Below, piece by piece: positions 1 through 53,069 of a stretch of 64,000 nucleotides of DNA. How positions within the stretch are numbered: the first letter of the stretch is position 1; the number at the start of each line of letters is the position of its first letter. The notes under the pieces were generated by a model. That model searched no databases. It saw only the letters and a program-made list of their open reading frames with translations, and had not been told where the DNA came from. This stretch comes from Escherichia phage ST0: sequence record MF044457; one strand, 5' to 3'. Position numbers and translations under genes: made by a program.

Positions 1-113
1 ACTACACTGTTCTCCTTGAGAAGACATTTATTAAACCACTTGAAGGATTCACATCAGCAGCGAAACTCGATTACGAGAAGAAAGCATCTCTGTTCGATAT
101 GTTCGATTTTTGA
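1..113 (+). CDS. 43: 3' end of DNA polymerase (gene 43), partial
   Basis: Frame ending TGA at 111-113 translates ...KPLEGFTSAAKLDYEKKASLFDMFDF*; the tail matches the sliding-clamp-binding C-terminal peptide I recall for RB69 polymerase. Position upstream of the 42/uvsX block fits T4 synteny. Confidence 0.6.
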   Translation, partial: YTVLLEKTFIKPLEGFTSAAKLDYEKKASLFDMFDF

Positions 114-153
114 TATAATGACATGGACGGTAAACTAATTAAATGAGAGAAAT

Positions 154-789
154 ATGAAAACTACTCCTATTACTATCGCTATTGACGCAATCATAAAACA
201 AGCTTCTTCTTTGGCCGCTATGGCCAAAGTAATTAGTCAAAACCCTGCTCGTTATAATGCTATTCTAGAAACTCTTCGACGCCCAGGACTTAGTAATTAT
301 GAAAGCCGAGTAATTATTACAGGTGTTGGTAAGAATGCTAATATTGCAACTAAAGCTTCTGAGACATTTGCTTCACTCGGTATCCCGAGTATGTACTTGA
401 ACACCGGGCATTATTCTCACGGTGATGCAGGATTCATTGCGCCTAATGATGTGTTGATTCATATTAGTCGTTCTGGTAAAACTGAAGAAATGATAGGCGT
501 GGCTAAGCATCTTAAAATGATTCGTCCGAACGTCAAACAGATTCTGTTGCATTGTAACCCAGACATTCCACAAGAAAATGAAGCCCTTTTTGATTACTCT
601 TTCTGTACAGGCATCGCAGTAGAGGTTGATGAGAATTCTCTGGCTCCGACCATGTCCACTACATTGTTGTTAGCGCTTATCGATACTTTTGCTATCAACC
701 TTTCGTCTGAGCGTGGATTTACCTCTAATGACTTCCTTAAGTTCCACCCTGGTGGTGCACTAGGTGCCATGTTACGAGGCGAACAATGA
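154..789 (+). CDS. SIS-domain sugar-phosphate isomerase, KdsD/GutQ-like arabinose-5-phosphate isomerase without CBS domains
   Basis: ORF track 211 aa. Motifs typical of the KdsD/KpsF SIS domain: GVGKNANIATK, SHGDAGFI, ISRSGKT, APTMSTT, FHPGGALG. RBS GAGAG upstream. Confidence 0.8.
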   Translation: MKTTPITIAIDAIIKQASSLAAMAKVISQNPARYNAILETLRRPGLSNYESRVIITGVGKNANIATKASETFASLGIPSMYLNTGHYSHGDAGFIAPNDVLIHISRSGKTEEMIGVAKHLKMIRPNVKQILLHCNPDIPQENEALFDYSFCTGIAVEVDENSLAPTMSTTLLLALIDTFAINLSSERGFTSNDFLKFHPGGALGAMLRGEQ

Positions 790-929
790 AAGCAATAACA
801 ATAGGACTTTTACTATTGATGCTTATCATGACTATCTACTGGAGCTTAACGGCTCCGGTAATGATTCCGACTCTTATAATCGGATGGATTATGATTGGAC
901 TACAAGCAAAGTATGAATGCTTTAACTAG
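786..929 (+). CDS. small hydrophobic protein, 47 aa, below ORF-track size cutoff
   Basis: ATG at 786 overlaps the stop of the preceding gene (ATGA). Translation MKAITIGLLLLMLIMTIYWSLTAPVMIPTLIIGWIMIGLQAKYECFN is almost entirely hydrophobic. Confidence 0.35.
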   Translation: MKAITIGLLLLMLIMTIYWSLTAPVMIPTLIIGWIMIGLQAKYECFN

Positions 930-970
930 AATAGTGTACAATACTCCTACTTACCAATGAGGACCACAAT

Positions 971-2656
971 ATGAAAAAAGCTGTTATTCTTGGTGCTGGA
1001 CTGGCAACTCGTTTGTATCCAATAACGCATCATATTCCTAAGGTGCTTGTTAACTATAAACAAGACACTATTCTGAGCAATTTGTATACAATTTATTCTG
1101 ACCTTGGTGCAGACGAAATTATTGTAGTAGTTCATTCAAAATTTGCTGAAACTGTTCGAGCTTATTGTGAGCAAGAAGGGTTCAATGTGACTATTCGTAC
1201 AGTTGATGAAGCATATGGTTCTGCTTATGCTCTTGCTAAATTGCACAAAGATTTAGACGGCCATAATGTAATTGTTAACTGGTGTGATATTATTCCCGAT
1301 TTTGGTTCATGGTCTTGGAATGTTAACGCAATCTATGTTAAGGGTGACGAATGTCGATATAATTTCGACGGTGAAAATATCACTAACGTAGGTTCAACAG
1401 GTGGTAATGTTGTAGGAATTTATCAGTTCAAAGACTGGGAATTCTATATGGGTTCTACTGATGAGGAAATTCATGAATACTGCAAAGGACGTGATTTCGT
1501 AGAATTCCTTTACGGCAGCGCATTCAATAAATCAGAGCTTATGAATCTAATTGATTTAGGTGATATGCCTAAACTTGAAAAAGCTCATGAAGTTCGTGAA
1601 CTTAATCGTAGTTTTAATGCAGTTGAAATCGGTGAAGAAACTGTAACTAAATTCGCATTAACCGAACAGGGCCGAGCTCTTCAGAAAGATGAGATTTCAT
1701 GGTATCTTAAAGTGAAATCAGATTCAGTTCCTCAGTTAGTTTCTGTTAATGAAAATAACTTTGAAATGGAACGCATTAAAGGTAAGCCAGCATTTGAATA
1801 TATTAAATCCAAATCGAGTCTTGCTCGTCCACAAATTGTTGATGCAATTTTAGATGCACTGAAATTCAGCACAGACACTTATTTTGTAAGTCCTGAAACT
1901 GTTCGCCGTGATTTCACTAAAGAGTTCTATACGAAAGTTATTGATCGTTGTGAAAGTATTCAACCATTGATTGATTCATTCGGTAAAATCACACATGTGA
2001 ACTACACTAAGATTGGACGTCTGAAGCCAATGTTGAAACAAGCTTTAGAACACCTTATTCGTTATCATAACCGTTCTCAGGGACAGTACTCTGTTATTCA
2101 TGGTGACCCGAACTTCAGTAATACTATGATTACTGATAATGGTGAAGTCAAGTTTATCGACCCTCGTGGATATTTTGGTGAAACCAAGATTTACGGGCCA
2201 AAATTGTATGATGAAGCTAAAGTGCTTTATGCTGTTTCAGGTTATGATGAATTCAACGCTAATCCGACCTGGGGGCAATTTACTATTGATGAAACAACTT
2301 GTAATGTGACTATTAACATCAATCCATTAGTTTACAAATATGGAAAGATGAGTTCGTTTAACGAGTATCATCATTTGGCAGTTGCAATTATCTGGATTGC
2401 ATTAGGCGGTTATTTCAAGAATAATCCACTTAAAGCGGTAGCCGCATATTATAAAGGTATGGAACTTCTGACTAAGCAATTACGCAACATGGGCCGTGTA
2501 CTTCAGGACGGCTCTATTAGTTATGACGTAGCAGAACCTGTAACGGCTACTCTGATTACAAAAAATCCTGGTAAATGGGTACTAACTGATAAAGAAACTG
2601 GTGTTTCCTATCGTCCAATCGGTGGCGATATCACTCATCAATGGGAACGAATCTAA
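971..2656 (+). CDS. bifunctional sugar-1-phosphate nucleotidyltransferase (N-terminal) / sugar kinase of the choline-kinase/APH fold (C-terminal)
   Basis: ORF track 561 aa. N-terminus ILGAGLATRL is the G-x-G-x-R loop of LicC/RmlA-type nucleotidyltransferases. C-terminal half has HGDPNFSNTMI and FIDPRG, resembling the catalytic loop and DFG-like motif of LicA/APH kinases. RBS GAGGA. Confidence 0.8.
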   Translation: MKKAVILGAGLATRLYPITHHIPKVLVNYKQDTILSNLYTIYSDLGADEIIVVVHSKFAETVRAYCEQEGFNVTIRTVDEAYGSAYALAKLHKDLDGHNVIVNWCDIIPDFGSWSWNVNAIYVKGDECRYNFDGENITNVGSTGGNVVGIYQFKDWEFYMGSTDEEIHEYCKGRDFVEFLYGSAFNKSELMNLIDLGDMPKLEKAHEVRELNRSFNAVEIGEETVTKFALTEQGRALQKDEISWYLKVKSDSVPQLVSVNENNFEMERIKGKPAFEYIKSKSSLARPQIVDAILDALKFSTDTYFVSPETVRRDFTKEFYTKVIDRCESIQPLIDSFGKITHVNYTKIGRLKPMLKQALEHLIRYHNRSQGQYSVIHGDPNFSNTMITDNGEVKFIDPRGYFGETKIYGPKLYDEAKVLYAVSGYDEFNANPTWGQFTIDETTCNVTININPLVYKYGKMSSFNEYHHLAVAIIWIALGGYFKNNPLKAVAAYYKGMELLTKQLRNMGRVLQDGSISYDVAEPVTATLITKNPGKWVLTDKETGVSYRPIGGDITHQWERI

Positions 2657-3042
2657 TGCACCGTGTAGAAAACATGCTTAATCTTTGTTTTGATGTCGAT
2701 GATTGTATAACAGAGTGGAATAACAATCGTGATTACGTGAACTTCAAACCAGACGTCGAAATGGTGTCTGCCATTAATGCCCTGTATGATGCAGGGCATA
2801 CCATAACGCTTTACACTGCTCGCGGTATGAAGTCAGTAGGCCCTGGTCGTATAGCAATTGACATTCTCCCAAGTCTGATTCAGAACTTGGCAAACATTGG
2901 ATTGAAGTACCATAATTTGCTAACACATAAACCAGTATATGATTGGATTATCGACGACAAAGCTATGCGTCCTGACGAATTCAAAGCTCTTATGAATAAA
3001 GGCGAATTCGAAACATTTAAATCATATAAACCGAATCTATAA
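2656..3042 (+). CDS. HAD-superfamily phosphatase-like protein
   Basis: ORF track 2641..3042; start moved to ATG at 2656 overlapping the upstream stop (TAATG). Motif I-like FDVDDC near the N-terminus, T in LYTAR, K in THKP, IIDDK motif IV-like. Confidence 0.6.
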   Translation: MHRVENMLNLCFDVDDCITEWNNNRDYVNFKPDVEMVSAINALYDAGHTITLYTARGMKSVGPGRIAIDILPSLIQNLANIGLKYHNLLTHKPVYDWIIDDKAMRPDEFKALMNKGEFETFKSYKPNL

Positions 3043-3096
3043 TAATTTAAGTAAGACCTGCAAAAACCATCGCAACAATTAACGCGAGATGCAAAA

Positions 3097-4257
3097 ATGA
3101 ATACCTTTAAAATCGGAACGAATTTTGATTTAGCTCTTCTTGATAAAATCGTAGAGCTCAATAAAACTTATCCTAATAGCTTGATAAACGAAGTATACGG
3201 CTCTACAAGAGAAATGGCTTTTGTAGCAGCCAGACCTGATTTTAGGCTTCCTGACGTTGACAAAAAGATGTTAGAAGATTACGTTAAACGTTGTAACGAA
3301 TTAGGTATTTGCTTTAACTATACACTCAACACGATAAATCCTGGTTCAAAAAGAGAACTAGTTGAGTGGAAGAAGAAAGCTATTCAGGATTATGTTCAGT
3401 ATCTTTGGTCAATAGGCGTATGGCGTATTACTATCGCTAACCCTGTTGTTATGGAAATTGTTCGTGAAGTCAATAAAGACATTGAGATTGAAGTTTCAAC
3501 AATTCTACATGTCGATGCTGTAACTCAAATCAAATACTTGCATGACCAATATAATATCAAAAAGGTCTGCTGCGGAATTCATAAGAACCGTTCAGTTTCT
3601 TTCCTGAAGCGTGCAGCAGAGTTTTGTAATAAGAACAATATAATATTTGAAGTTCTTGTAAATGAGTTCTGTTCTAATGCTGGTAAAGGGTATACAACAC
3701 ATTGTAGTTATCGTGACTCTTGCTATATTTTCCATAGCACCGATGTTACAGTAGATGATGCCAAATCTTTAAATGGATATCCAATGCAACATTGTATTAA
3801 AGCTCGTGATACAGATCCATTTAACTGGTTGAGAACTCGTTTTGTTCGTCCTCAAGATTTGAAACTTTATAATGATATTGGTATCACTCAATTCAAAGTT
3901 TCAGGACGTACAGGTAGCACAGACTACATTTTGAAAGTTCTTGAAGCTTATGCTTCTGAAAAGTTTGAAGGTAATTTGTTGGAATTGTGGAAGCCTTTAG
4001 AGACCATTTTCACTCTTGAAAATGAGACTGAGTTTTCACATACGGTAAATATTGAAACCTCTTTGTTAGATGGCTTTTTAGAAAAAAGGTGGTTCAGACA
4101 TCCAGATTTCGATTGTGCTAATGAAATCTGCGGGACGACGTGTACATATTGTGAAAGATATTATAAACGTCAATTATCTAAAAACGGGTTAGCAGAAAAC
4201 TCTATATCTATTATTGATATAACTAACTCTGATGACGCTTTGAGGTACCCGGAATGA
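3097..4257 (+). CDS. Cys-rich protein with U32-family-like signature, function unknown
   Basis: ORF track 386 aa. EVLVNEFCSNAGKGYTTHCSYRDSC resembles the U32 family signature (E-x-F-x2-G-x-x-C...C-x-x-S); C-terminal CANEICGTTCTYC cluster. Confidence 0.55.
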   Translation: MNTFKIGTNFDLALLDKIVELNKTYPNSLINEVYGSTREMAFVAARPDFRLPDVDKKMLEDYVKRCNELGICFNYTLNTINPGSKRELVEWKKKAIQDYVQYLWSIGVWRITIANPVVMEIVREVNKDIEIEVSTILHVDAVTQIKYLHDQYNIKKVCCGIHKNRSVSFLKRAAEFCNKNNIIFEVLVNEFCSNAGKGYTTHCSYRDSCYIFHSTDVTVDDAKSLNGYPMQHCIKARDTDPFNWLRTRFVRPQDLKLYNDIGITQFKVSGRTGSTDYILKVLEAYASEKFEGNLLELWKPLETIFTLENETEFSHTVNIETSLLDGFLEKRWFRHPDFDCANEICGTTCTYCERYYKRQLSKNGLAENSISIIDITNSDDALRYPE

Positions 4258-4397
4258 TTTCTAGAAAAACTTTTAACCACCAACTTAACGAAGAGATTTT
4301 GACTATGAAAATTAACAGCAACGAACAAATTCTTAAAAAGGCCCTAATGGGCCTGTTTGAAACTAAAGCGGCTAAAGTGATTAAAGAACCTGTTTAA
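4254..4397 (+). CDS. small ORF, 47 aa, below ORF-track cutoff
   Basis: ATG overlaps the stop of the preceding gene (ATGA); translation MISRKTFNHQLNEEILTMKINSNEQILKKALMGLFETKAAKVIKEPV. Confidence 0.25.
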   Translation: MISRKTFNHQLNEEILTMKINSNEQILKKALMGLFETKAAKVIKEPV

Positions 4398-4535
4398 TTG
4401 GAATACTACGCTGATGCATTTCTTCATAGTGTTCTTGGAAGTATCGATGCTGAAGCTTTACGTTATATCAACATTGTCAAGAAATTCAAATAAGCTTTAC
4501 GAATTGAGTATATAATAAATTGTATTGAGGTAAAC

Positions 4536-5252
4536 ATGGGAAAACATAACACAATGAAATATATCAAAGCCGCAGATTTTCAAACCGCATTTAAAGCAGT
4601 CAATCGTGAAATTTTAGAAAACCCGGAATTCGTAACTGATTCTCGTATTGGACGTTGTAATGAAATTGGGTCTATGACAGTAGTTGTTGACACTCCGTCA
4701 TCATTCAAAATGACTGACCCACGTATTAACCGCATCTCTTATGAATATGCCGAAGACTTCTGGAAGTTTATGATTTCTGGTGGTACCAACGCAGAAGAAG
4801 CGTTTAAGGCATATCCTAATGTCGCTAAATTTATTTCTAAACCAAAATCAGATGTTTTGCCGGCGAACTTCAACACTTTCTATGGTCCTCGCATTGTGGC
4901 CCAATTACCAGCTCTTCTAAAAGAACTTAAAGAGAAGCCTAACTCTCGAAGAGTTGTGTTCCAAATTCTAGAAAGTTCTGATCAGGCTTTGCTTGATTCG
5001 GACGAAACACTTGAATATCCATGTACTGACTCAGTGACTTATTATATTCGCGATGGTAAGCTTTATACCCACTGTCATATGCGTTCTCAGAACTGTGCTG
5101 TTGTTATGCAGTTGGATTTTTATCTCCAAGGAAAATTACTTCATTATATCGCTAACGAATGTGGTGTAGAAGTTGGTGATTATACTCATACCATGGTAAG
5201 TGCCCATGTGTTTGAACGTGATTTTGATTATGTTAAAGGATTCCTTGACTAA
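4536..5252 (+). CDS. 42: thymidylate-synthase-fold pyrimidine hydroxymethylase, gene 42 (dCMP hydroxymethylase) position
   Basis: ORF track 238 aa. NSRRVVFQI, YPCTDSVTYYIRDGK and HMRSQNCAV parallel the SRR, catalytic Cys and MRSND regions I recall for T4 gp42, but overall divergent. RBS GAGGT. Confidence 0.7.
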   Translation: MGKHNTMKYIKAADFQTAFKAVNREILENPEFVTDSRIGRCNEIGSMTVVVDTPSSFKMTDPRINRISYEYAEDFWKFMISGGTNAEEAFKAYPNVAKFISKPKSDVLPANFNTFYGPRIVAQLPALLKELKEKPNSRRVVFQILESSDQALLDSDETLEYPCTDSVTYYIRDGKLYTHCHMRSQNCAVVMQLDFYLQGKLLHYIANECGVEVGDYTHTMVSAHVFERDFDYVKGFLD

Positions 5253-6151
5253 TGGCTATTTTCCGCGTACCTATCTTGAGTATGCGGTCTTATGAAACTG
5301 GACAGTATGCTATCCTTAAGGATGGCAACTTCCAACTTCATTTGCACCGTGCTAATCCGGGTGATGTGATTACATATCCACGTAATGCATCTGATATTAA
5401 AGAATGTGAACGTCTTTTCCCAGAATTTAAGTTTGTTCCATTATGGTATAAAGATAACGCGTATAACACTCGTAAATATTTCTGGTCTGAAAATGAATTT
5501 GTGGTTGATTCATTAATTGCTTATTATGATTGTGATTTTCTAATCACAGATATCACTGGATACGACGGCGCTTTTGACGTAGAATTCAATTTCAATATCA
5601 CTGCAGACCCTAATAAACCACGTTTTTATATTGACGAATTCTTAAAAACCGATATGTTGTCGGTTAATCGTTCACTTCAAACTACCGTGTTGAATAAACG
5701 TCAAAAGGAAGTGCTGGTTAACGCTGGTGCAGATGGTAATAAGATTATCGTAACGCAGAAAGTTATACGTCCTTCCATCATGCAGCGTCTTGTAGGTGAT
5801 TTGGCTCCTATTCATCTAGATGGTATTTTTCATCCATTTCGAATTAGTGACCCGTGCTATCGTTTTGAACAAGTGGTTGAATGTGCAATTCAATTAGGCC
5901 AACCGCTTTATATAACCGATCCAAATAATAGCTTCGACAGAAATAAGTATCCTGAAGAAGCGCTGATTCGAATTTTTAAACCAACTAAAACTGAGTACTA
6001 TCAAATTCTTAAAGGACGGCCGAAGATTCAATATTTCGAAAATCCTGAAGAAGTATTCCATCCAGGTCTTGGTGAGTTCATCTACTTTAATGCTTTAATT
6101 TCTTCACCGTATAATATACCTAAATACGAAGATGTCGTAATCGAGGAATAA
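5252..6151 (+). CDS. hypothetical protein at the beta-glucosyltransferase locus
   Basis: ORF track 299 aa; start overlaps the stop of the hydroxymethylase gene by 1 nt. No motif recognised. Confidence 0.5.
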   Translation: MAIFRVPILSMRSYETGQYAILKDGNFQLHLHRANPGDVITYPRNASDIKECERLFPEFKFVPLWYKDNAYNTRKYFWSENEFVVDSLIAYYDCDFLITDITGYDGAFDVEFNFNITADPNKPRFYIDEFLKTDMLSVNRSLQTTVLNKRQKEVLVNAGADGNKIIVTQKVIRPSIMQRLVGDLAPIHLDGIFHPFRISDPCYRFEQVVECAIQLGQPLYITDPNNSFDRNKYPEEALIRIFKPTKTEYYQILKGRPKIQYFENPEEVFHPGLGEFIYFNALISSPYNIPKYEDVVIEE

Positions 6152-6152
6152 A

Positions 6153-6701
6153 ATGGCTAAAATTATTTTAGTAGATGGCCCAGATAATGCTGGTAAAACA
6201 ACTTTCATTAATGACATAATGGAAATTAGTGAAAGATATGTAAAGATTGATTTCCCTAAACGAACAGTTGATGGACGTTTCGATGTTAAGTCTCGAAATG
6301 AAGTTGGCTGTTTCGAAACGATGTTGAATTATTTAGACCCTACTAAGATTTATCTGTTAGACCGTGGATATATTAGTAACTGGGTTTATGGACGTATTCG
6401 ACAAGATGCGGACTCGGTTCTTGACGTTTATGAACAGGATTATGTTCGTCTTTGCCAAAACCATGATGTGTTCACAATTATTTTAACACGTAACGAAATG
6501 ACTGAAAGTTTTGAAGACGATCTTATTACTTTGTCTTCATTCGGTTTTAATACAGTCATTTCATATTTTGAAGAGTTTGCAATTCATAACAAAATCCAAA
6601 CGTATCAATTACTTAATCATGACGGTGCTAACAAAGTTATAGGATTTAATGCAAGCGAACGTAATTATTTGATTACAGAAATTATCAAATGGGCTCGTTA
6701 A
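6153..6701 (+). CDS. P-loop NTPase, small nucleotide/sugar-kinase-like
   Basis: ORF track 182 aa; Walker A GPDNAGKTT at residues 9-17; starts 1 nt after the upstream stop. Confidence 0.6.
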   Translation: MAKIILVDGPDNAGKTTFINDIMEISERYVKIDFPKRTVDGRFDVKSRNEVGCFETMLNYLDPTKIYLLDRGYISNWVYGRIRQDADSVLDVYEQDYVRLCQNHDVFTIILTRNEMTESFEDDLITLSSFGFNTVISYFEEFAIHNKIQTYQLLNHDGANKVIGFNASERNYLITEIIKWAR

Positions 6702-6800
6702 GAGCCTGTTTAAAGTTTTAAATGCTGTATAACCCTTAGTATATAATCGTCTTATCTTTTAAACATGAGTAAAATATAATGATGCCTATGGAAAAATACA

Positions 6801-7973
6801 ATGTCTGATTTAAAATCTCGTCTGATTAAAGCTTCTACTTCTAAAATGACTGCAGACTTGACTAAGTCTAAGCTGTTTAATAATCGTGATGAAGTCCCTA
6901 CTCGTATTCCGATGTTGAATATTGCATTAGGTGGTGCACTGAATGCCGGGTTGCAATCAGGCTTAACTATTTTTGCTGCTCCTTCTAAACACTTTAAAAC
7001 GTTGTTTGGACTGACCATGGTTGCAGCATATATGAAGAAATATAAAGATGCAATCTGTTTGTTCTATGATTCAGAATTTGGTGCTTCAGAATCTTATTTT
7101 CGTTCAATGGGTGTTGATTTAGACCGTGTAGTTCATACTCCGATTCAATCTGTCGAACAACTTAAAGTTGATATGACTAATCAGCTTGACGCTATTGAAC
7201 GCGGTGATAAAGTTATTATCTTTATCGATTCAATCGGTAATACTGCATCTAAGAAAGAAACTGAAGATGCATTGAACGAGAAAGTTGTAGGTGATATGTC
7301 TCGTGCTAAGGCACTTAAATCTCTGTTCCGCATTGTGACTCCTTATCTGACTATTAAAGATATTCCATGTGTTGCAATCAACCATACAGCAATGGAAATC
7401 GGTGGATTGTATCCTAAAGAGATTATGGGTGGTGGTACAGGTATTCTTTACTCTGCTAACACTGTATTCTTTATCTCTAAACGTCAGGTTAAAGAAGGTA
7501 CAGAATTGACCGGTTATGACTTCACGTTGAAAGCAGAAAAATCTCGCACCGTTAAAGAAAAATCTACTTTCCCAATCACGGTTAATTTTGATGGCGGTAT
7601 TGACCCATTCAGTGGCTTGTTAGAAATGGCAACTGAAATTGGTTTTGTGGTTAAGCCTAAAGCTGGGTGGTATGCTCGTGAATTTCTTGACGAAGAAACA
7701 GGTGAAATGATTCGTGAAGAAAAATCATGGCGTGCTAAAGCTACTGATTGTGTAGAATTCTGGGGGCCGTTGTTTAAACACAAACCTTTCCGAGATGCAA
7801 TTGAAACTAAATATAAACTAGGTGCTATCTCTTCTATTAAAGAAGTTGATGACGCTGTTAACGACCTTATTAATTGCAAAGCAACAACTAAAGTTCCGGT
7901 TAAAACTTCTGATGCTCCGTCTGCAGCAGATATAGAAAACGACCTTGACGAAATGGAAGATTTCGATGAATAA
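6801..7973 (+). CDS. uvsX: UvsX RecA-like recombinase
   Basis: 390 aa; near-collinear with T4 UvsX as I recall it (MSDLKSRLIKASTSK..., GWYAREFLDEETGEMIREEKSWRAK). Confidence 0.95.
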   Translation: MSDLKSRLIKASTSKMTADLTKSKLFNNRDEVPTRIPMLNIALGGALNAGLQSGLTIFAAPSKHFKTLFGLTMVAAYMKKYKDAICLFYDSEFGASESYFRSMGVDLDRVVHTPIQSVEQLKVDMTNQLDAIERGDKVIIFIDSIGNTASKKETEDALNEKVVGDMSRAKALKSLFRIVTPYLTIKDIPCVAINHTAMEIGGLYPKEIMGGGTGILYSANTVFFISKRQVKEGTELTGYDFTLKAEKSRTVKEKSTFPITVNFDGGIDPFSGLLEMATEIGFVVKPKAGWYAREFLDEETGEMIREEKSWRAKATDCVEFWGPLFKHKPFRDAIETKYKLGAISSIKEVDDAVNDLINCKATTKVPVKTSDAPSAADIENDLDEMEDFDE

Positions 7974-11057: not shown

Positions 11058-11426
11058 ATGAAAAAATTAATCGCTTTAACAATGATATTTGGATTAACCG
11101 GATGTGGTGCCCATGGCTTTATCCCTAATAACGTTGGCCAACTGATTTACAATCCGAATGTTAAACAGTATGACCAACCTAAAGTTGAAGTGGAAGACCC
11201 GGTTACTGTAGGTAATCGAATGGTTCAAGCTGATGCCCATGCTCAACGTTATCGTGACTCTGATACTGTAGCATTGCCAAAAGAACAACGCGTTAAAGAA
11301 CATTGTCTACAGGCTACTGAAATCGCATTCATTCGCTATGTTGAAACAACCGGTAAAGAGCCCACCCAGAAACAAATCGCAAATAACTACGTCCAGTGTA
11401 TTGAACGTTTAAACAAATTTAACTAA
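11058..11426 (+). CDS. putative lipoprotein
   Basis: 122 aa; signal peptide MKKLIALTMIFGLTGC with lipobox LTGC. Confidence 0.6.
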   Translation: MKKLIALTMIFGLTGCGAHGFIPNNVGQLIYNPNVKQYDQPKVEVEDPVTVGNRMVQADAHAQRYRDSDTVALPKEQRVKEHCLQATEIAFIRYVETTGKEPTQKQIANNYVQCIERLNKFN

Positions 11427-11429
11427 TTG

Positions 11430-11459
11430 GTTTACACCAAAGTTAAAATAAGATATTAT
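11430..11459 (+). promoter_or_regulatory. early promoter
   Basis: GTTTAC, about 18 bp, TATTAT. Confidence 0.5.
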
Positions 11460-11487
11460 AAACATAACAAATCAAGAGGAAATTAAC

Positions 11488-11736
11488 ATGGAATTATTCG
11501 TAGCTAGTTCAGTAGCGGTTTTAATCGCAGGTATTGGTTCAATCATCATTTACATGTTGCCTTGGGTAATCGCACTTATTCGTGGCACAAAAAGCACAAC
11601 AGCAATCTTCTTTGTATCTTTACTCTTTAACTGGACGATGGTTGGTTGGATTGGAACTTTAATTTGGTCTATCGTTGCCGAAAAGAAATCTGCTCAGCAG
11701 CCTCAACAAGTAATTATTATTCGCGAAAAAGAATAA
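11488..11736 (+). CDS. small integral membrane protein (two predicted TM helices)
   Basis: 82 aa; two long hydrophobic segments; RBS AGAGGA. Confidence 0.6.
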   Translation: MELFVASSVAVLIAGIGSIIIYMLPWVIALIRGTKSTTAIFFVSLLFNWTMVGWIGTLIWSIVAEKKSAQQPQQVIIIREKE

Positions 11737-27015: not shown

Positions 27016-28116
27016 ATGAAAGTTATGTTTATCCCATCTCGTGCAGTCCCATTTAATCCTGACCGTGTACAAGGTGGCCTTGAAGCAGTACATTTAAATG
27101 TGTTGAAATATCTTGTGTCCATCGGTGCTGATATTGATTATATCGGCTTTGATAATGACACGTTTGGTGACTGGAAAGTTACACACCATCCTGTTGGTCA
27201 TCTGACTAAATTCAGTCTAGGTATGAGTTATACTATGGCTCGTAAGATTGTTGAACTAGCCGACATCCATGAATACGATTTTGTTGTTACTATGGAACCG
27301 ACTAAACTAACCGTTCAGGCAATTAAAGACGCAGGTCTCTCTAAAGTTCATAAGAATTTTATGGCAACACCATTTGAACCGGTATCTCGTGGCATTGTTC
27401 AAATTTGGGACCAGACTATTCAAATTCATAAGAATGGTGGTAAGAGTTATGCTCCTACTAAAGCCTTCCGTGAATTTGAACGTAAATATTGCCATATGAC
27501 TTCAGCTCTGACTGACAAAATTGATTATGATTATTGGCGAGCAAATCCGTTGTTTGAAGCCGAAGATTATCCGGTTATTTGTTTGAATGAGAAACCTGAA
27601 GTTCTTCCAGCGACTGATCTGATTATTAGTGCACAACGTTATGACACTAAAATGCGTCGTACTGATGTTGCTCTTGAAGCAATTAAAGCACTAGGCGAAA
27701 ATGGTATTGGTTATTGTCCTAGTAAATGGGCACCACCAGCTAAATATCCTGTTATTATTGATGCTCCACACAGTGAAATCATGGAACGTCTTAAAACAGC
27801 TAAAGCACTTATTAATACGTGTCCTGACACAGGTACGGTAGAGAATAGTTCTATTGAAGCCATCTCTAAAGGTGTCCCTGTAATCCAGTTAGCTTTTAAG
27901 GATTATCCTCATGCGACATTCGAATACGACCCAGATACTGTGCGTGTCGAAATTGATTCCTCTACTCCTAAGAAAGAAGTAGTTGCGCTTTACACAAAAG
28001 CTGTATTAGAATTCACTGACACATACGAAGCTCGAGTTAAACGTGCTGAAGCAGTATGGAAGAAGTATAATCGAGATGCAGTTGTTGCGATGTGGGATAA
28101 AATCTTCACAGCGTAA
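27016..28116 (+). CDS. GT-B-fold glycosyltransferase-like protein (candidate DNA hmC glycosyltransferase)
   Basis: 366 aa; C-terminal ENSSIEAISKGVPVI resembles the E-x-x-x-x-EA...G-x-PVI donor-binding motif of GT4-type GT-B enzymes. Lies between 39/60 and rIIA. Confidence 0.65.
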   Translation: MKVMFIPSRAVPFNPDRVQGGLEAVHLNVLKYLVSIGADIDYIGFDNDTFGDWKVTHHPVGHLTKFSLGMSYTMARKIVELADIHEYDFVVTMEPTKLTVQAIKDAGLSKVHKNFMATPFEPVSRGIVQIWDQTIQIHKNGGKSYAPTKAFREFERKYCHMTSALTDKIDYDYWRANPLFEAEDYPVICLNEKPEVLPATDLIISAQRYDTKMRRTDVALEAIKALGENGIGYCPSKWAPPAKYPVIIDAPHSEIMERLKTAKALINTCPDTGTVENSSIEAISKGVPVIQLAFKDYPHATFEYDPDTVRVEIDSSTPKKEVVALYTKAVLEFTDTYEARVKRAEAVWKKYNRDAVVAMWDKIFTA

Positions 28117-35575: not shown

Positions 35576-35791
35576 ATGTCTAAAATGAAATTAACCCAAA
35601 ACACAACTACTCGTTTTGGTAAAGTTAAACCTGGTATGAATGCTCCCCGTAAAGCACTTGTTGAAGAATTAAATTTCTTAGAAGTTGAAATCAATTCTTT
35701 AGTGGTTCGCGGTTCAAATGGTCATCATTTAGAAAAGCTTCGTTCTAAAAAGGCAAAACTTATTGGCCTTATTAAAGAAATGAGTTTGTAA
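35576..35791 (+). CDS. hypothetical small basic protein
   Basis: ORF track 71 aa; leader and first codons near-identical to those of motA. Confidence 0.45.
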   Translation: MSKMKLTQNTTTRFGKVKPGMNAPRKALVEELNFLEVEINSLVVRGSNGHHLEKLRSKKAKLIGLIKEMSL

Positions 35792-35827
35792 ATTTTACCA
35801 GGGCTTTTGAAAAAGAGCCCAAAATAA

Positions 35828-38676: not shown

Positions 38677-39336
38677 TTATTTAGCCCTTCCTAGTATTCG
38701 GACCGCTTGGTTGCATATAGCCGCTAAGCGGTCTTCCTCAAGTATATTACTCCCCTTATACCAATACATCGTCACAGTTCCGGCATAGATGTTATCCAAA
38801 TTAAAGTATGGACAACTATACATATAAGAAAGTTCGGCAGTCTTAGATTTTGTAGGCAAAAATGCAAATTCTGATTTAGATGAGAAATGACGGCCACTTA
38901 AATGAATTATATATTCATTGGCCGTTTTATCCACCGGGAATCCGCCAAGGGACTTTTCAGAAATTGTGCTAGGTAGTTTGCCTTCATAAGCTATAAGGTC
39001 GACGAAATAATTTAAGTTTTTAGGTCTGAAAGAATACACAGCACTAAAATCCGCACCAGATGAGATATGAACTATTTGCAGTTGTTCTAGAGCCGCAGAT
39101 TCAAAACGTAAAGCTCGTTCTTTTTGGATTATTTCAGTATAAGTATCATACTTAGCTCTTACATAATAATCCAGCAAAATACTTCCTTTGTACCATATTA
39201 GTGCCATTAGGAACAAAAGAATAATTACCGCTACTCGGGACATTAAAACCTTTCCAGTAGCGTTATCTTTGAAAATACGATCTAGCAACCCAAATAGAAT
39301 ATCACTAAGTGAAAATGATACTTTTGGTGTTGCCAT
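38677..39336 (-). CDS. t: holin T
   Basis: 219 aa; MATPKVSFSLSDILFGLLDRIFKDNATGKVL...AVYSFRPKNLNYFVDLIAYEGKLPSTISEKSLGG matches remembered T4 holin. Confidence 0.92.
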   Translation of the reverse strand: MATPKVSFSLSDILFGLLDRIFKDNATGKVLMSRVAVIILLFLMALIWYKGSILLDYYVRAKYDTYTEIIQKERALRFESAALEQLQIVHISSGADFSAVYSFRPKNLNYFVDLIAYEGKLPSTISEKSLGGFPVDKTANEYIIHLSGRHFSSKSEFAFLPTKSKTAELSYMYSCPYFNLDNIYAGTVTMYWYKGSNILEEDRLAAICNQAVRILGRAK

Positions 39337-39345
39337 AATACCTCC

Positions 39346-39897
39346 TTACTTAAAGATATTTATAATCGCTTTGACAATAGATTTGTTTTCAAGGTCAGGG
39401 AATTTAGGGAATTCACCGCCAAGATGTTCATGCTTTTCTAAAAGGGCAAAGAATTTTTTGAGCTCTTTATATTTTCGTTTTTCTTCTCTATTAGCAACCT
39501 CTGCGTCAATAAGAGAATTTAAAACACTGAATAATTTATAGAGTTCATGAATTTTCTTATCACGTTGAACTACGCGTTTATATGCTTCATCTTCCTTCCA
39601 CCCGTCGCCGGTCCAAATGTCAAATTCACCAGGTTCTTCTGTAGTAACATTTTGAAGAGCACCTGGTGTGTCAATAACAATTTTTTGCTTATCATAAGTC
39701 CATACTGTTTTTCCACGATGGTCTTCAACATATACCCATTCTTGCTCGCGTTCGTCAAATATAACAGCATAGCCTTCTTTAGGGTCTAAAGGTTTTTTTG
39801 GTGTCGAATGAGCCGGAAATCCTACGCCTTTTAATGGTTTATAATTTTCTTCTTTGTAAAATTCTTTAGTGTCAAAATAATAGTGATAGAGTTTCAT
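39346..39897 (-). CDS. 38: gp38 distal tail fibre assembly chaperone (T4 type)
   Basis: 183 aa; MKLYHYYFDTKEFYKEENYKP...FALLEKHEHLGGEFP matches remembered T4 gp38. Confidence 0.92.
   Translation of the reverse strand: MKLYHYYFDTKEFYKEENYKPLKGVGFPAHSTPKKPLDPKEGYAVIFDEREQEWVYVEDHRGKTVWTYDKQKIVIDTPGALQNVTTEEPGEFDIWTGDGWKEDEAYKRVVQRDKKIHELYKLFSVLNSLIDAEVANREEKRKYKELKKFFALLEKHEHLGGEFPKFPDLENKSIVKAIINIFK
39357..39364 (-). promoter_or_regulatory. late promoter TATAAATA for holin t
   Basis: Minus strand reads TATAAATA, then AAGGAGGT RBS and ATG of t. Confidence 0.6.
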
Positions 39898-39906
39898 ATT
39901 ATAAAA

Positions 39907-39920
39907 GGGACAGAAGTCCC
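39907..39920 (-). promoter_or_regulatory. hairpin between Shine-Dalgarno and start codon of gene 38
   Basis: Minus strand: GGAG right after the gene 37 stop, then GGGAC-TTCT-GTCCC, then TTTTATAT-ATG. Confidence 0.55.
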
Positions 39921-39926
39921 TTCTCC

Positions 39927-42900
39927 TTATGCTAAACGAACGATATAGTTAAAAGCAACGTTTTTAACTGTGTTTTCTGTATTACCTGTACTATTTACAG
40001 TGATAGTATGACCGTGCGAACCAATAGCTACTGAATGAGTGTGAGCGCCAATACCTACGGTGTGAGTATGAGCGCCAATACCTACCGTATGCGCATGGTT
40101 GCCTGTGGTGCTAGTAGTACCAGACCAACTATGGGTGTGGGCACCATCATTTGATGTTTTACCGACCTTAGTTGCTAAAGTCGAACCAGTGATACCTGAG
40201 TTAAGTTTAGCGTATGCGTTTGCACTTATCGTAGTAACCCCGTCTCTAAACAAATCGTCTGCCCATGCAGCAGTGACCTGTGGACCTGAACGCGTGTGTT
40301 GGTGAGCACCAGCGGAACTAGTATTACCACTCACTGTATGGCTATGGTTGCCAGTGGTATTACTGGTCTTAGTACCATAATCAAAGCTTGAAGTCGTTTT
40401 GCTACCGTAATCAAAACTTGACGTATTTTTAGTACCCAAATCTGTGTTTGATGCACTTGCACTATGGCTATGTGACTTAACACCGTCTGCTTCTGTACTT
40501 AATACAGCACGACCAGATGGTTTACCCTTGATAGTTTGACCACGCATATCAGGCAGAGTGCCGGAAGGATACACTGCAGCTAACTTAGGATACAAGCCAG
40601 CATCAAATGTTTGACCTTCCATTATGGCATAGCCTTCAGGAGGTGTATCAGTAGGCCAAGGAATCGGAGCACCAATCGGGTAACTCGAGACAATATCCGT
40701 CTTAAGGTTATTTATTGTGGTATTCAAGTTAGCAAAATTACCAGAACCACCAGTGATATTACCATCAGTACCAATACGAACATTACCAGCGCCTAATTTA
40801 CCAGGAGAATAAAAATCACCGTTTTTATTAAATTCCCATCCAAGATCCTTTATAACAGCACCAGTAGAAACGCCGTCACCACCTTCGTGATAATGAACTC
40901 TAAAGTTACCACCATTAATTAAAGTACCAATAGAATAGCAACTATTATTTTGAACGTATCTTTGTTTCACAATAGGAACATAAGTGCTTGTATCGGTTCT
41001 ATCTATATTCATGTAGAACGGAGCACGAACGTTTTCATTATTTTGTGAAGCAAAAGAACCAGCTCCAGCAGGTCGTGCAGTATCAGTACATTCAGCGTCG
41101 ATATATGCCGATTGTCCTAATTGCATACGGTAATTAGGAGAAATGCGACTATGGCTAGTTATAACAACAAGTTTATTATCATTATCAACGGTCACCATAT
41201 TACCGCCAGCACCGTCATCACCTAACGTAACAGAATGGCGCATTTGAACCATACCATTATTAAGACTAATACTTAGTGGACGGAGATTACTTATTCCACC
41301 ACTTTCACCTGCATCTTTAAGTGTAGGTATAATATGCAAAGACGCTTCAGAACGACGGAAAATAGCTCCATATTCAGCATTGTAAATACGGAAAGCATCT
41401 GCGGTATTACCGATTTTAACTTGACCGGTAATAGAACCGCCACCGGATAAAACAAGCCCGTTATCCATAGTAACTTGTCCGGATAATGCACTTAATCCAT
41501 TAACTCTAAGACTTCCATCGGTGATAATGCTCCCTCTAGCATTAACTTGTCCATTGAACTGGGTTACAACAGGTCCCACAGTTTCTGAATCGGTTGGAGC
41601 TATGCGCTGAGAATAAAAATAATATCCCTGCCCGTCAGCTACTTCAAAAACTGTTTCACGAGTACGATCGCCGGATGCGTTAAATGAATTACCCCATGCT
41701 TTAACAGTTACGTAGCTTTTATTCTGCCCAGCACGAGTACCACCTTCCCACAAAATTTGCTTAGTGCCATCAACTGTAGTAGTTGGAGCGAATGTTAGCC
41801 CGGCAGTAGAATTATTAGCTGCTAAATATACACCATTATATATTGAAAGCTGCTTAGTGGATGTAATACCGCCATCAGCATAAAACATCACATTATTTGC
41901 ACCGGTTACCAATTTCAAAATACCCGGGTTAATTTCCATACCTTGTTGGGTATTGATATTCATCTGACCTGTACCACGGAAATAATGGGAAAATTTACCG
42001 CCAGAATTATATCCAATGTGGGTTTGACCATCACCTGCATTGTTTGTATCAGCCTGGGTTTGAACCGATAAAAGCGCGGCGTTGGTTCCAGGCATTGTCC
42101 AGGTTCCGCCTTGGTCTTCTGAGCGTCCAAATAATGCTTTACGAGTACTACGGAAACTATCAGGAGTAATAGAAGCAACAGAATTCCAATTACCTACTAA
42201 ATCATAAACGCCTTGCTTAATATATTTTAAACCAGTTGCAGCATCGCCCAAAGCAATATATCTTTCTCCCATTGGAGTAGGAGAGCCATAGTTGTTAGTA
42301 TTTTCGTCAGCAGTAATTGTGCCAATAGCAAGTGAACGACGTAATACCATTGCGCCATCATTACGAAGACCCATTAATTTAGTAGTAAGTGTATTTCCGG
42401 TCCACCAAGAAATTTCATCGTTCTTACCAGTTTGAGCTGAAGCGATTTCATGGTAAATAGTTCCGCCTGATTTAGCTCGAACTTTACGAAGATAGTTTAT
42501 ACCATTTTCTTCACCTGTTCCAGGATAAACATATTGAACTAATGATTGTGAATCATATTGTCCGAATGCCTTTGTATCTAAAATAATATTTTTAGTATTA
42601 ATCTGAGGTGAAGTAATATTTCCGAGAGCTGCAATATTTCCAGATGTAGTTATACTACCTCCTGATACTGCTAAACCTCCGCCGTCAACAGTAAATCCGC
42701 CGTCGCGTCGAAACGTCCAATATTTCGAATCGCCAGATTCATTGATATAATGAATCTTCAACGAACCTTCAGAAACTAAAGTACCTAATGAAAAAGTTCC
42801 ATCTTTAAAGCGTTGTTTAATTATAGGATTATATTCCGAAGTAGCGGTTGATGCGGAAATATCCATGAAAATAGGGGCTTTTGCCGTGTGTTGACCTGCC

Positions 42901-43199
42901 CAAGAACCAACTCCGGTGGCCTTATAAGCAAATTCGATATATCCACCAGATGCAACATTTTGTGAGCCTATTAAATTAAATGTACCTGTCTGAGTATAGT
43001 TACCTACGTGAGTTACATTACCGTTAATATCGCCGCCTTTAGCAAAGCCTAGGCTAATAATATTACCGAGGTCATCTTTAGTAAAAAGAGTTCGATCTTT
43101 TAAGTTTATCGCTAATTCGCCTTCGGCTAATTGTGCTGCAGTAGGATTAACTCCTGCCACTTTGCTTCTTTTAAATTGTATCTGTTTTAATGTAGCCAT
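39927..43199 (-). CDS. 37: gp37 long tail fibre distal subunit
   Basis: 1090 aa; N-terminus [13 protein letters not shown]...; C-terminal His-x-His repeats ([34 protein letters not shown]). Confidence 0.95.
39995..40100 (-). repeat. tandem nucleotide repeats encoding the His-x-His units of gp37
   Basis: GTGTGAGCGCCAATACCTACGGT and GTATGAGCGCCAATACCTACCGT are adjacent near-identical copies. Confidence 0.6.
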
Positions 43200-43207
43200 A
43201 AGTCCTC

Positions 43208-43873
43208 TTAATAATAGCCGAAATCTTGAACAGAATCTTTAATTACAATCTGGTCGAAACGAGGAACATGATTAGCCTCAGACGCCGGATTCTGTGAGAA
43301 AAAGTTTGGTGCTGTTAAAGTACCAGCCATGGTATCGCCAGAACGCAATACACGGGAATTTGCGTTATCTGTAACAATATTTATTCGTCCATCAACGTAA
43401 TCTTTTCTTGTGAGATCATTTGCTGCAACCGGAGCAGTCATATCGCTTCTTACTTGTCCTGAAGCAGATACAACGCCTTTTGTACTAATATCGCCATTAC
43501 GTGTGTTAATTACAACAGTTCGAGCTGCTGAACCTTGCGATGATTTAAAACCAATACCATTCCACGAAACAATATCGATATTTGCTACAGCAAAAGTAGC
43601 ATTATCACCGTTACCTGGATAAACGCCGCATGGGTTTGTGTTGTTTACAGCATACGGAACTTGAACGCCACCGTTAAATGTTACCTTTGATGCATACGTA
43701 CCACCATTAGCTTTAGAAACGAAATCATTATCAGCCGCTTGTGGTTTATTATATTCTGAATAGAGTTTAAACGTTTTATACAGGACGTCATCACCTGCTG
43801 GCATTAAAGGGAAATTACCTTGATGCCATATGACAGCACCGCCAGTTGTACTACCAGCTTTTAAATCGGCCAT
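43208..43873 (-). CDS. 36: gp36 tail fibre hinge connector
   Basis: 221 aa; position and length as T4 gp36. Confidence 0.9.
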
Positions 43874-43897
43874 AGTTGTCTCCTTATATGTATACCA

Positions 43898-43905
43898 TAT
43901 TTATA
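43898..43905 (-). promoter_or_regulatory. late promoter TATAAATA for gene 36
   Basis: Minus strand reads TATAAATA about 25 nt upstream of the gene 36 ATG. Confidence 0.55.
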
Positions 43906-43912
43906 CAAAAAT

Positions 43913-43930
43913 GGGAGACCGAAGTCTCCC
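43913..43930 (-). terminator. UUCG-type hairpin between genes 35 and 36
   Basis: Minus strand GGGAGAC-TTCG-GTCTCCC followed by ATTTTTG. Confidence 0.5.
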
Positions 43931-43935
43931 TAAAT

Positions 43936-45063
43936 TTATTCCGATGCTTCTTTAAATTCTTGTCCAAATACCTTACCAGTATCAGTTGAAGATTGAGTAG
44001 GTAATGTCATTATGTCTGGGGCACTTAAAGATTCTGAAACATAATTTACACGAATACCATTTATACCAAACTCGGCAGGTTTTGAAACGCTTCCATTACA
44101 TGATACTTCAGTGAATATAACGTTTCTTAATCCACCTTGCCCGACTGGAGCTGTACGATAACAATAAATCGTGAACCCGTCAGCACCAGCAGGAATTTCT
44201 ACGTAGTCTTCATATATCTTCCATTCACCTGCGGCCCCATCAAAGTTTGTATCTTTAAATGAAATAGGTGAAGTAGAAGGAGATTTAAAGAAACGAATAG
44301 AAAGTCGTGTCGTCCCTTGTGCTAACAAATCAGCATCGGCCATTAGTTGGAATTTCATATAAAGGAAATCTCCAGGCTTCAATTTATACCCAGCGAGAGG
44401 TGTAATAAGGGATGTTGTAGGCATCCTTTTAATTTCATTATTAGTACCTCCAACAGCAGATAAAAATGTGTCTGTCGATTCGTACGTACGACTAGGGAAG
44501 CCGGTAGCACCAATATCATCGATCGTGTCGTACACAACATCAAGTGGTGTACTATAGTCGGTTGAAGTTTTCTTATTACTATACTTAATATGCTCTAGTG
44601 CTATAGCATTCTTACCAGAAATATAAAATGCTGAATAAGAAATGTCCACTATATTTAAAACTTGTTGAGCTAATGGAATAACAGAACTCCCAGCTTTAGT
44701 AAACCACGCAAGAACTTCTGGCGGAAAGTTTGTTTTAGCGTTAGTAACAAGAGCAAATATAAAATTAGAAGCGTATGTGTCCATGTAAGTAACAAATGCA
44801 CTTGACGTGGCGTCGTTTTCAGTAGAGAAATTATATGACTTAGATTCAACTACTGCACCTGTTGTAGGATTTATTACACGAACGTTTAATCCAACAGAAA
44901 AAACCTGGGACCCAAGTGGATTATCTTGGAACTTAATATAAGCAGGAGATGTTGATAGCGGGCAAGAGCCCGCTATGCTTAATTTAAATCGTACTGAATT
45001 GCTTTCCGATAAAAATGGCGTTTGGACGTATCCTTGTCCGAACTTAGCCATAAATTTTTCCAT
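43936..45063 (-). CDS. 35: gp35 tail fibre hinge protein
   Basis: 375 aa; position and length as T4 gp35. Confidence 0.9.
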   Translation of the reverse strand: MEKFMAKFGQGYVQTPFLSESNSVRFKLSIAGSCPLSTSPAYIKFQDNPLGSQVFSVGLNVRVINPTTGAVVESKSYNFSTENDATSSAFVTYMDTYASNFIFALVTNAKTNFPPEVLAWFTKAGSSVIPLAQQVLNIVDISYSAFYISGKNAIALEHIKYSNKKTSTDYSTPLDVVYDTIDDIGATGFPSRTYESTDTFLSAVGGTNNEIKRMPTTSLITPLAGYKLKPGDFLYMKFQLMADADLLAQGTTRLSIRFFKSPSTSPISFKDTNFDGAAGEWKIYEDYVEIPAGADGFTIYCYRTAPVGQGGLRNVIFTEVSCNGSVSKPAEFGINGIRVNYVSESLSAPDIMTLPTQSSTDTGKVFGQEFKEASE

Positions 45064-45071
45064 AATACCTC

Positions 45072-48000: not shown

Positions 48001-48947
48001 TCATTTGGACGAATATTTGAATCAGCACGGATAATACGAAGACGCGATTTCTGGTCGCCTTCCCATATACGCCATAAACTATTTGAAGCATCAAAAACAA
48101 AAAACGCGTCAGAGTCATTTCTGCCTTCGGCAATATGAGTCCCGACTTCACCAATAGACGTTGTATCATCAAATGTTTTAACAATTGTATGATACAGTGG
48201 GTTTAATTTATCTAAATCGACTAGGGTGATTATATCACCATTGTTAGCATTACGTGGAAGTGTAATGTTGATTGGTGCTGCACTAGTAAAACGACGAACG
48301 ATAAAATCATTTGCTTGTGCTTGATATGGTGTCGCAGGTGTAACAGTGATTGATTCTTTACCGTAATCAATGATATACATCTGCCACAAACGATTACTAA
48401 ACACAAACAATAGTTGTGAACGTGGACGCGTCATTAAAACTGTACGAACTTGTTCACCTCTAAAGTTTAAAATACTCTGCACAGACGCGTTAATCTGTAC
48501 TTTAACTGTCCCGGTTCTTCCACCAATATCAGCCAAAACAACAGTATCACCATCAACCGGCGCATTTGGCAACGTGAAAACCATATCATTGCCGGCCCCA
48601 GTGTTAACCGAAATAGAATCACCTGAAGAAAGTTGATAAGTCCCAGAAGAGACAGTTATCCATTGTGCATCGGTACGAACTGCACGCCATTGTAAAAGGT
48701 TAAATGCCCCGGAAGGAGACACGATATCATTTATTGCTTGATATAAACGGTTGTCATAAAGAACAACAAATCCTTTGTTATATCCACGCGTAGAATCATA
48801 TACTTGAACGGTGTTTTCTTGTACCAGGAAGTCAACGTTTACGCCATCAGTACCTACTGTACGGTCGGCTAATGCTACGTTAACAATCTTGTCGCCACCG
48901 GCGTCCAGACCGTCTTCGGCTCTGAACTTACGTTTGATGTCGGCCAT
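45072..48947 (-). CDS. 34: gp34 long tail fibre proximal subunit
   Basis: 1291 aa; N-terminus MADIKRKFRAEDGLDAGGDKIVNVALADRTV...; internal repeats of the TPKKL type. Confidence 0.95.
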   Translation of the reverse strand: MADIKRKFRAEDGLDAGGDKIVNVALADRTVGTDGVNVDFLVQENTVQVYDSTRGYNKGFVVLYDNRLYQAINDIVSPSGAFNLLQWRAVRTDAQWITVSSGTYQLSSGDSISVNTGAGNDMVFTLPNAPVDGDTVVLADIGGRTGTVKVQINASVQSILNFRGEQVRTVLMTRPRSQLLFVFSNRLWQMYIIDYGKESITVTPATPYQAQANDFIVRRFTSAAPINITLPRNANNGDIITLVDLDKLNPLYHTIVKTFDDTTSIGEVGTHIAEGRNDSDAFFVFDASNSLWRIWEGDQKSRLRIIRADSNIRPNEEVLIFGTNNATTGTINLTLPTGILSGDTVKISMNYMRKGQTVKIKAAEGDTIASSVALLQFPKRSEYPPDAQWVSVTELEFNGTTSYVPVLELSYIEDTVAGTRYWVVQQNVPTVERVDAGTDATRARLGVIALATQAQANVDLENTPAKEVAITPETLANRTATEARRGIAKIATTAQVNQNSTASFVDDTIVTPKKLNERTATETRRGLAEIATQTETDAGLDDTTIITPKKLQARQGSETLSGIVKYVSTTSATPAETRGAAGTNVYNKTVNNLTISPKALDQYKATYAQQGAVILAIDSEVIAGQSQSGYSHAVVTPETLHKKTSTDGRIGLIEIATQAETNAGTDYTRAVTPKTLNDRRATEGLSGIAEIATQVEFDTGTDDTRISTPLKIKTHFDSSDRTSVNSDSGLIEEGTLWNHYTLDISKANETQRGTLRVATQAESNAGTLDDVLITPKKLLGTKSTETSEGVIKVATQAETVTGTSANTAVSPKNLKWIVQNEPTWAATTAIRGFVKTSSGSITFVGNDTVGSTQNLELYEKNSYAVSPYELNRVLANYLPLKAKAADANLLDGLDSSQFIRRDIAQTVNGSLTLTQQTNLSAPLVSSSTATFGGSVSANSTLTISNTGASTRLIFEKGPQTGNNPAQAMNIRVWGNQFAGGSDTSRATIFEVGDETSNHFYSQRDNLGNITFSINGTVRPINVNASGTLNANGAATFGRSVTAQGEFITYSANAFRAISGNYGFFIRNDAANTYFMLTASGDQTGGFNGLRPLAINNASGQVTVGESLIIAKGATINSGGLTVNSRIRSQGTKTADLYTRAPTSDTVGFWSIDINDSATYNQFPGYFKMVEKTNEVTGLPYLERGEEVKSPGTLTQFGNTLDSLYQDWITYPTTPEARTTRWTRTWQKTKNSWSSFVQVFDGGNPPQPSDIGALPSDNATIGNLTIRDFLRIGNVRIIPDPVNKTVKFEWIE

Positions 48948-51211: not shown

Positions 51212-51240
51212 GCTTTATTTCTTGTGTGTTAAAATTACTT

Positions 51241-51248
51241 TATAAATA
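51241..51248 (+). promoter_or_regulatory. late-type promoter TATAAATA upstream of gene 32
   Basis: Exact TATAAATA about 85 nt upstream of the gene 32 ATG. Confidence 0.4.
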
Positions 51249-52236: not shown

Positions 52237-52242
52237 TAAATC

Positions 52243-53067: not shown

Positions 53068-53069
53068 TT

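Follow-up and report, generated by a model that had tools for sequence, protein, structure and literature searches.

An RB69-type gene 43 terminus and an adjoining cytosine hypermodification cassette in a 64-kb Mosigvirus window

Positions 3 to 113 of the analyzed DNA (a stretch of 64,000 nucleotides, hereafter the window) almost certainly represent the 3' end of gene 43 of an RB69-like coliphage (Mosigvirus, Tevenvirinae), which encodes a polymerase with a clamp-interacting tail and is followed by an RB69-type cytosine hypermodification cassette. Identity to RB69, lineage and the genes that follow the polymerase were all directly observed. Overall, the window comes from an ordinary RB69-like coliphage, and everything found in it has already been described; the points added to the first-pass annotation are the limited specificity of the terminal 11-mer, the updated chemistry of the predicted DNA modification, and the recognition of the tail fiber module as a common Mosigvirus variant. 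The polymerase end consists of the following features:

3..113, + strand: 3' end of gene 43 (family B replicative DNA polymerase), the last 36 codons plus the TGA stop
48..110, + strand: clamp-interacting C-terminal tail, equivalent to RB69 gp43 residues 883-903 (numbering from the PDB alignment)
114..153, + strand: 40-nt spacer from the polymerase stop to the next gene, forming with its flanks a lineage-specific junction

In frame 3 of the plus strand, positions 3..110 translate as YTVLLEKTFIKPLEGFTSAAKLDYEKKASLFDMFDF, with the TGA stop at 111..113. This gene 43 reading frame has no stop back to position 1 and extends upstream of the window, so that just the final 36 codons are present; the 11-mer KKASLFDMFDF corresponds to codons 26-36 of the visible part (78..110). 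Frame 2 of 1..113 is broken by stops, frame 1 is open and encodes unrelated residues without polymerase sequence, and no open reading frame of at least 50 aa overlaps 1..113 on either strand. In a sequence search of the PDB, the 36 residues aligned without a mismatch (36/36) to positions 868-903 of many 903-aa polymerase chains, among them 1ig9, 1clq and 1ih7, these three being RB69 gp43 (PMC3012046). An identical stretch terminates gp43 of the RB69 genome entry AY303349, and the polymerase end of the window is 100% identical to U34036, the original entry for gene 43 of RB69. At the nucleotide level, 1..113 is identical to RB69 (113/113), and extension of the comparison to 1..160 adds one mismatch, which is intergenic. 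Together with the tblastn E value of 3e-16 in 2.3 Gb of phage DNA, these identities rule out a chance match. Furthermore, the tail occupies the same extreme C-terminal position as in RB69, and both the 40-nt spacer (apart from the one mismatch) and the gene after it are shared with that phage.

The gp43 tail of T4 has the same role and position, and shares with the window the ...DYE-KASL... lead-in and an aromatic and hydrophobic C-terminal motif, but the two sequences share only 47-50% identity across 34 aligned residues. In T4, the tail is ...DYEEKASLDFLFG, and gp43 ends DHSTLFQKSFVKPLAGMCESAGMDYEEKASLDFLFG before its stop, the last residues being EEKASLDFLFG. The T4 polymerase chains 9e5y and 9ea3 (898 residues), which represent the T4 polymerase of PMC12746103, matched the query weakly in the PDB search (E=3.7e-4), and no nucleotide match between the T4 gene 43 tail region and the window was detected by blastn, T4 having no match anywhere in 1..6800. 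The window ends in SLFDMFDF, as opposed to the Tequatrovirus-type ...SLDFLFG, in agreement with the first-pass annotation, which had recognized KKASLFDMFDF as the C terminus of the RB69 polymerase rather than that of T4.

The tail is located at the extreme C terminus of a family B polymerase, has a hydrophobic and aromatic end (...KKASLFDMFDF followed by the stop, 78..113), and is equal to the clamp-binding peptide of RB69 gp43 (883-903) seen in PDB 1b8h. In that structure, the PIP-box tail 883-903 was cocrystallized with the RB69 gp45 clamp; the pocket that accommodates it is mainly hydrophobic (Tyr39, Ile107, Phe109, Trp199 and Val217), and Arg32 and Lys204 of gp45 contact acidic residues of the peptide (PMC3012046). 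The equivalent segment of T4 gp43, 892-SLDFLF-897, sits in the same interdomain pocket of the clamp, and removal of the last six residues of T4 gp43 abolishes clamp association and holoenzyme formation (PMC12746103). The last ~21 residues encoded in the window form a flexible clamp-interacting tail ending in KKASLFDMFDF; by analogy with RB69, the hydrophobic and aromatic residues of this tail would enter the interdomain pocket of a gp45 sliding-clamp subunit. Given that the tail is identical to that of RB69, we infer that it would bind gp45 in the mode seen in the RB69 crystal structure; gene 45 itself lies outside the window. The RB69 tail peptide crystallized by Shamoo and Steitz in 1999 reportedly comprised 11 residues; a full-text literature search retrieved no article that spells out KKASLFDMFDF, and the tail is matched to the crystallized peptide through the residue range given in PMC3012046.

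A second clamp-binding tail is present in the window, at the C terminus of gp33 (50223..50561); it reads ...EKTNTLDFLL, and gp33 of RB69 and of T4 ends in exactly these residues, in contrast to the polymerase tail, in which the lineages diverge. One clamp pocket evidently accepts both motif variants, those of the gp33 and gp43 tails. It is very unlikely that the divergence of SLFDMFDF from SLDFLFG next to an unchanged gp33 reflects lineage-specific tuning of the polymerase-clamp affinity, or of polymerase exchange, as opposed to neutral drift, and that it might add to replisome incompatibility between the lineages.

To assess the specificity of the tail, we compared gp43 C termini across ten genera, and found homologous tails in all 10. 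Representative termini are as follows:

Window and RB69 (Mosigvirus): KKASLFDMFDF
CIP9 (Kanagawavirus, an Enterobacter phage): KKASLFDMFDF, at 979..1011 of the CIP9 locus
IME08 (Dhakavirus): KKATLFDMFDF
VR26 (Gaprivervirus): KKATLFDMFDF
Moon (Moonvirus): ends in DMFDF
ValerieMcCarty03 (Jiaodavirus): ends in DMFDF
T4 (Tequatrovirus): SLDFLFG

Among the ten genera, T4 has one of the outlying tails. As judged from these sequences, the 11-mer excludes Tequatrovirus but alone does not identify the RB69 genus because an exact copy occurs in the Kanagawavirus CIP9. The earlier proposal that the 11-mer anchors the lineage can thus be retained insofar as it excludes the T4 genus, but not as a signature specific to RB69, given the exact copy in CIP9 and the single change in Dhakavirus and Gaprivervirus. 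The same distribution raises the alternative that the window derives from another Tevenvirinae genus with the same or nearly the same tail, such as Kanagawavirus, Dhakavirus or Gaprivervirus, an origin that the 11-mer of CIP9 and the near-identical termini of IME08 and VR26 would allow. However, over the 36 residues, these three phages are just 72-78% identical to the window, compared with 100% in RB69-like records, and their polymerase gene is followed by imm or by hypothetical proteins (unrelated hypothetical proteins in the case of CIP9) rather than by the isomerase. The nucleotide identity of the whole window to RB69-like phages (96-98%) rules out another genus carrying the same 11-mer, so that such an origin has practically no chance of being correct.

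Longer sequences discriminate much better than the 11-mer. In tblastn searches of 2.3 Gb of phage DNA, the 36-aa stretch was found at 100% identity in 150 phage records, with just 4 more records reaching at least 80%. The junction (1..160) was present in ~152 phage records at 95% or greater identity and 80% or greater coverage, and the annotated rows among those listed were mostly labeled as DNA polymerase followed by arabinose 5-phosphate isomerase. The identical polymerase tail and the same polymerase/isomerase junction occur, in particular, in AV112/AV113, HY126, JS09, HX01, mar005P1 and ECCR664. Thus, on sequence grounds, the full 36 residues and the junction of the polymerase stop with the arabinose-5-phosphate isomerase gene are the real lineage anchors. 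The 150 records with the identical tail are close in number to the ~157 records that are at least 95% identical over positions 1-25000, and the two presumably represent the same set.

The placement of the window does not depend on the polymerase end. We compared three chunks of the window (1-25000, 25001-50000 and 50001-64000) with 50,697 phage records using megablast. For all three, the best matches were RB69-like phages, at 96-98% identity and 93-100% coverage, including AV112/AV113, 308Ecol101PP, JS09, HX01, mar005P1, ECCR664, HY126 and RB69 itself. Two of these, RB69 and AV112, carry the Mosigvirus classification, so that the best database matches include classified members of this genus. 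Glucosylating T4-group phages, a best match to which had been named in advance as refuting the RB69-like lineage, were absent among the best matches of the three chunks, and this lineage is hence upheld well beyond the 11 residues from which it was originally proposed. In local blastn comparisons, RB69 covered 92.9% of the window at a mean identity of 93.8%, whereas T4 covered 62.1% at 74.1%. Identity to RB69 was 96-97% in most 2-kb bins; outside the fiber genes, it was 93-97% in nearly every bin, and that to T4 never exceeded 79%. According to the ICTV, membership in Mosigvirus entails ~70% or greater similarity (identity multiplied by coverage) to the type phage RB69; the coverage and identity given above, which pertain to the 64-kb window only, exceed this level. 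Every part of the window has a close Mosigvirus counterpart, although no single entry among the phage records reaches 99% identity across the window, the exact isolate being absent from them. Different Mosigvirus isolates are the best matches of different chunks, as is typical of mosaicism within the genus, and the RB69 genome itself is ~3-4% different over most of the window and has another long-tail-fiber module.

Gene content immediately downstream of the polymerase provides a further mark of the genus. Gene 43 is followed here by the arabinose-5-phosphate isomerase cassette and not by imm.1, imm, gene 42 and beta-gt, which T4 carries at this position. The genes of the cassette, along with uvsX, which follows it, and a distant gene of the same pathway, are as follows:

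154..789, + strand: SIS-domain arabinose-5-phosphate isomerase, homolog of RB69 ORF055c / gp55 (Pfam SIS, 1e-10); 100% identical to RB69 over residues 18-211 and 99% to HY126
971..2656, + strand: bifunctional sugar kinase / NDP-sugar pyrophosphorylase, RB69 ORF53_52c, AfhE-like (intact, 561 aa; Pfam NTP_transferase in the N-terminal part); 99.5-99.7% to RB69 in two pieces and 97% to HY126
2641..3042, + strand: small HAD-like phosphatase, RB69 ORF051c / gp51, AfhF-like; 99.2% to RB69 and 100% to HY126, with no Pfam domain found in this protein
3097..4257, + strand: Peptidase-U32-like protein, RB69 ORF050c / gp50 (Pfam Peptidase_U32, 6e-11); 99.2% to RB69
4536..5252, + strand: thymidylate-synthase-fold enzyme at the gene 42 position, homolog of RB69 gp48 (Pfam Thymidylat_synt, 1e-15); 98.7% to RB69 ORF048c but just 24.8% to T4 gp42
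5252..6151, + strand: putative first DNA arabinosyltransferase, RB69 gp46:47 (one uninterrupted ORF, 299 aa); 98.3% and 100% to the two RB69 pieces, and 99% to HY126 as one ORF
6153..6701, + strand: nucleotide-kinase-like protein, RB69 ORF045c / gp45, the last cassette gene before uvsX; 98.4% to RB69
6801..7973: uvsX
27016..28116, + strand: homolog of RB69 ORF003c, putative second arabinosyltransferase (GT-B fold); tblastn, 98.1% over 366/366 aa

The cassette would thus supply, in order, an arabinose-5-phosphate isomerase, a kinase/pyrophosphorylase, a phosphatase, a U32-like protein, a 5hodCMP synthase, an arabinosyltransferase and a nucleotide kinase. Its proteins are 98-100% identical to those of RB69 and 97-100% to those of HY126, and their domains are consistent with the assignments wherever Pfam detects any. 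Every gene of the arabinosyl-5-hydroxycytosine cluster of RB69 (gp45-gp55 plus gp3) and HY126 (Afh) is present in the same order, including counterparts of the isomerase, the kinase/pyrophosphorylase, the phosphatase, the 5hodCMP synthase and the two arabinosyltransferases. The nucleotide-kinase-like identity of RB69 gp45 (ORF045c) is a structural assignment (Table 1 of PMC13326640), and RB69 ORF003c is a candidate arabinosyltransferase (PMC6024577, PMC13326640). The homolog of the latter adjoins the fused 60plus39 topoisomerase gene, and the nucleotide match to RB69 is unbroken through the position of the fused gene in that phage.

Two genes of the cluster are split in the GenBank entry of RB69, AY303349 (ORF053c/052c and ORF047c/046c), and are intact in the window (971..2656 and 5252..6151, respectively). 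The ORF53/52 split has been attributed to a sequencing error, the actual protein being 561 aa long (PMC6024577), and the gp46:47 split has been explained in the same way (PMC13326640). The intact 561-aa and 299-aa ORFs therefore support the published interpretation of both RB69 splits as sequencing errors. A separate rearrangement involves imm.1 and imm, which in the window lie at 11058..11736, downstream of dmd/61.4 as in RB69, whereas in T4 they directly follow gene 43; it is due to this location that the modification cassette abuts the polymerase.

The chemistry of the base produced by this cluster has recently been revised. Thomas et al. (2018) found that RB69 DNA carries arabinose in place of glucose, and named the base arabinosyl-hmC (PMC6024577). 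In 2026, the RB69 base was described as 5-hydroxycytosine carrying one or two arabinofuranoses (di-arabinosylated), not hydroxymethylcytosine; gp48 was identified as a thymidylate-synthase-like 5-hydroxy-dCMP (5hodCMP) synthase, and the other cluster genes, including those for the isomerase and the phosphatase, were placed in the synthesis and transfer of NDP-arabinose, an assignment backed biochemically in HY126 (PMC13326640). Ions at m/z 376 and 508 are reported in the same study for arabinosylated 5-hydroxy-dC of RB69. The T4 genes beta-gt, dam and arn had no tblastn match in the 64-kb window, and the combination of a T4-type gp42 with a glucosyltransferase, which makes up the glucosyl-hmC system, was not found in the window; the alpha-gt locus would lie outside it. 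By analogy with RB69 and HY126, for which the chemistry is known, the cassette predicts that the DNA of the phage represented by the window contains arabinosylated 5-hydroxycytosine and not glucosyl-hmC. The non-glucose hmC modification anticipated in the first-pass annotation is accordingly borne out as regards the sugar and has to be amended as regards the base, since that of RB69 is di-arabinosylated 5-hydroxycytosine (PMC13326640).

The long-tail-fiber genes, 39346..48947 on the minus strand, are not those of RB69. The holin gene and the distal part of the fiber region are organized as follows:

38677..39336, - strand: holin t, 219 aa (Pfam Phage_holin_T, 1e-90); 82.6% to RB69 t and 74.9% to T4 t
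39346..39897, - strand: gp38, T4-type tail-fiber assembly chaperone, 183 aa (Pfam Caudo_TAP); 67.6% to T4 gp38, with no match to the 257-aa gp38 of RB69
39927..43199, - strand: gp37, distal long tail fiber, T4-type, with a His-rich tip; 59.9% to T4 gp37 over the full length and 32.6% to RB69 gp37

RB69 had no blastn match to 39367..43008. Of the remaining fiber proteins, gp34 is 81% identical to T4 and 75% to RB69, gp36 is 84% and 75% identical, respectively, and gp35 is nearer to RB69 than to T4. The affinity of gp34, gp36, gp37 and gp38 to T4 rather than RB69 shows mosaicism; the previous description of both gp38 and the holin as T4-like fits the former, whereas the latter is closer to RB69. 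Each of these four fiber proteins being nearer to T4 might suggest that the RB69-type polymerase end and cassette had been acquired by a phage with a Tequatrovirus (T4-group) backbone or by a T4 x RB69 recombinant of recent origin. Yet the best nucleotide matches of the t-38-37 module, at 91-95%, are RB69-like phages (LH01, ECCR664, p000y, ATK47 and O157 typing phage 3), compared with ~80% for Tequatrovirus, which rules out a T4 x RB69 recombinant. The uniformly high identity to RB69 of the window outside the fiber genes, with T4 at 79% or less, and the absence of T4 beta-gt, dam and arn from the window argue in the same direction, and RB69 has been described as unable to recombine with T4 (PMC6024577). 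A T4 backbone or a recent recombinant is therefore an extremely improbable source of the window. Because t-38-37 is best matched by RB69-like phages, the fiber genes do not conflict with the RB69 lineage, and the module is a common Mosigvirus variant that reflects the usual swapping of receptor-binding modules within the genus.

Apart from the fiber region, two short segments of the window have no nucleotide match in RB69. The first, 35585..35819, coincides with a 71-aa ORF of unknown function (35576..35791) between gene 52 and motA, and the second, 53068..53306, with an 82-aa ORF of unknown function (53070..53318) just upstream of frd. Both have the appearance of the accessory-gene exchanges typical of hyperplastic regions. 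A scan for tRNA genes found none in the 64-kb window.

For the scanning of phage DNA, these results imply that the 36-residue stretch or the polymerase/isomerase junction marks the RB69 genus, whereas the 11-residue tail does not. The tail itself serves only as an annotation anchor, by which the window is fixed as Mosigvirus; from this placement, the type of replisome can therefore be predicted, along with arabinosylated 5-hydroxycytosine rather than glucosyl-hmC in the DNA. The predicted hypermodification of the DNA would, in turn, predict the sensitivity of the phage to restriction and type IV defense systems.
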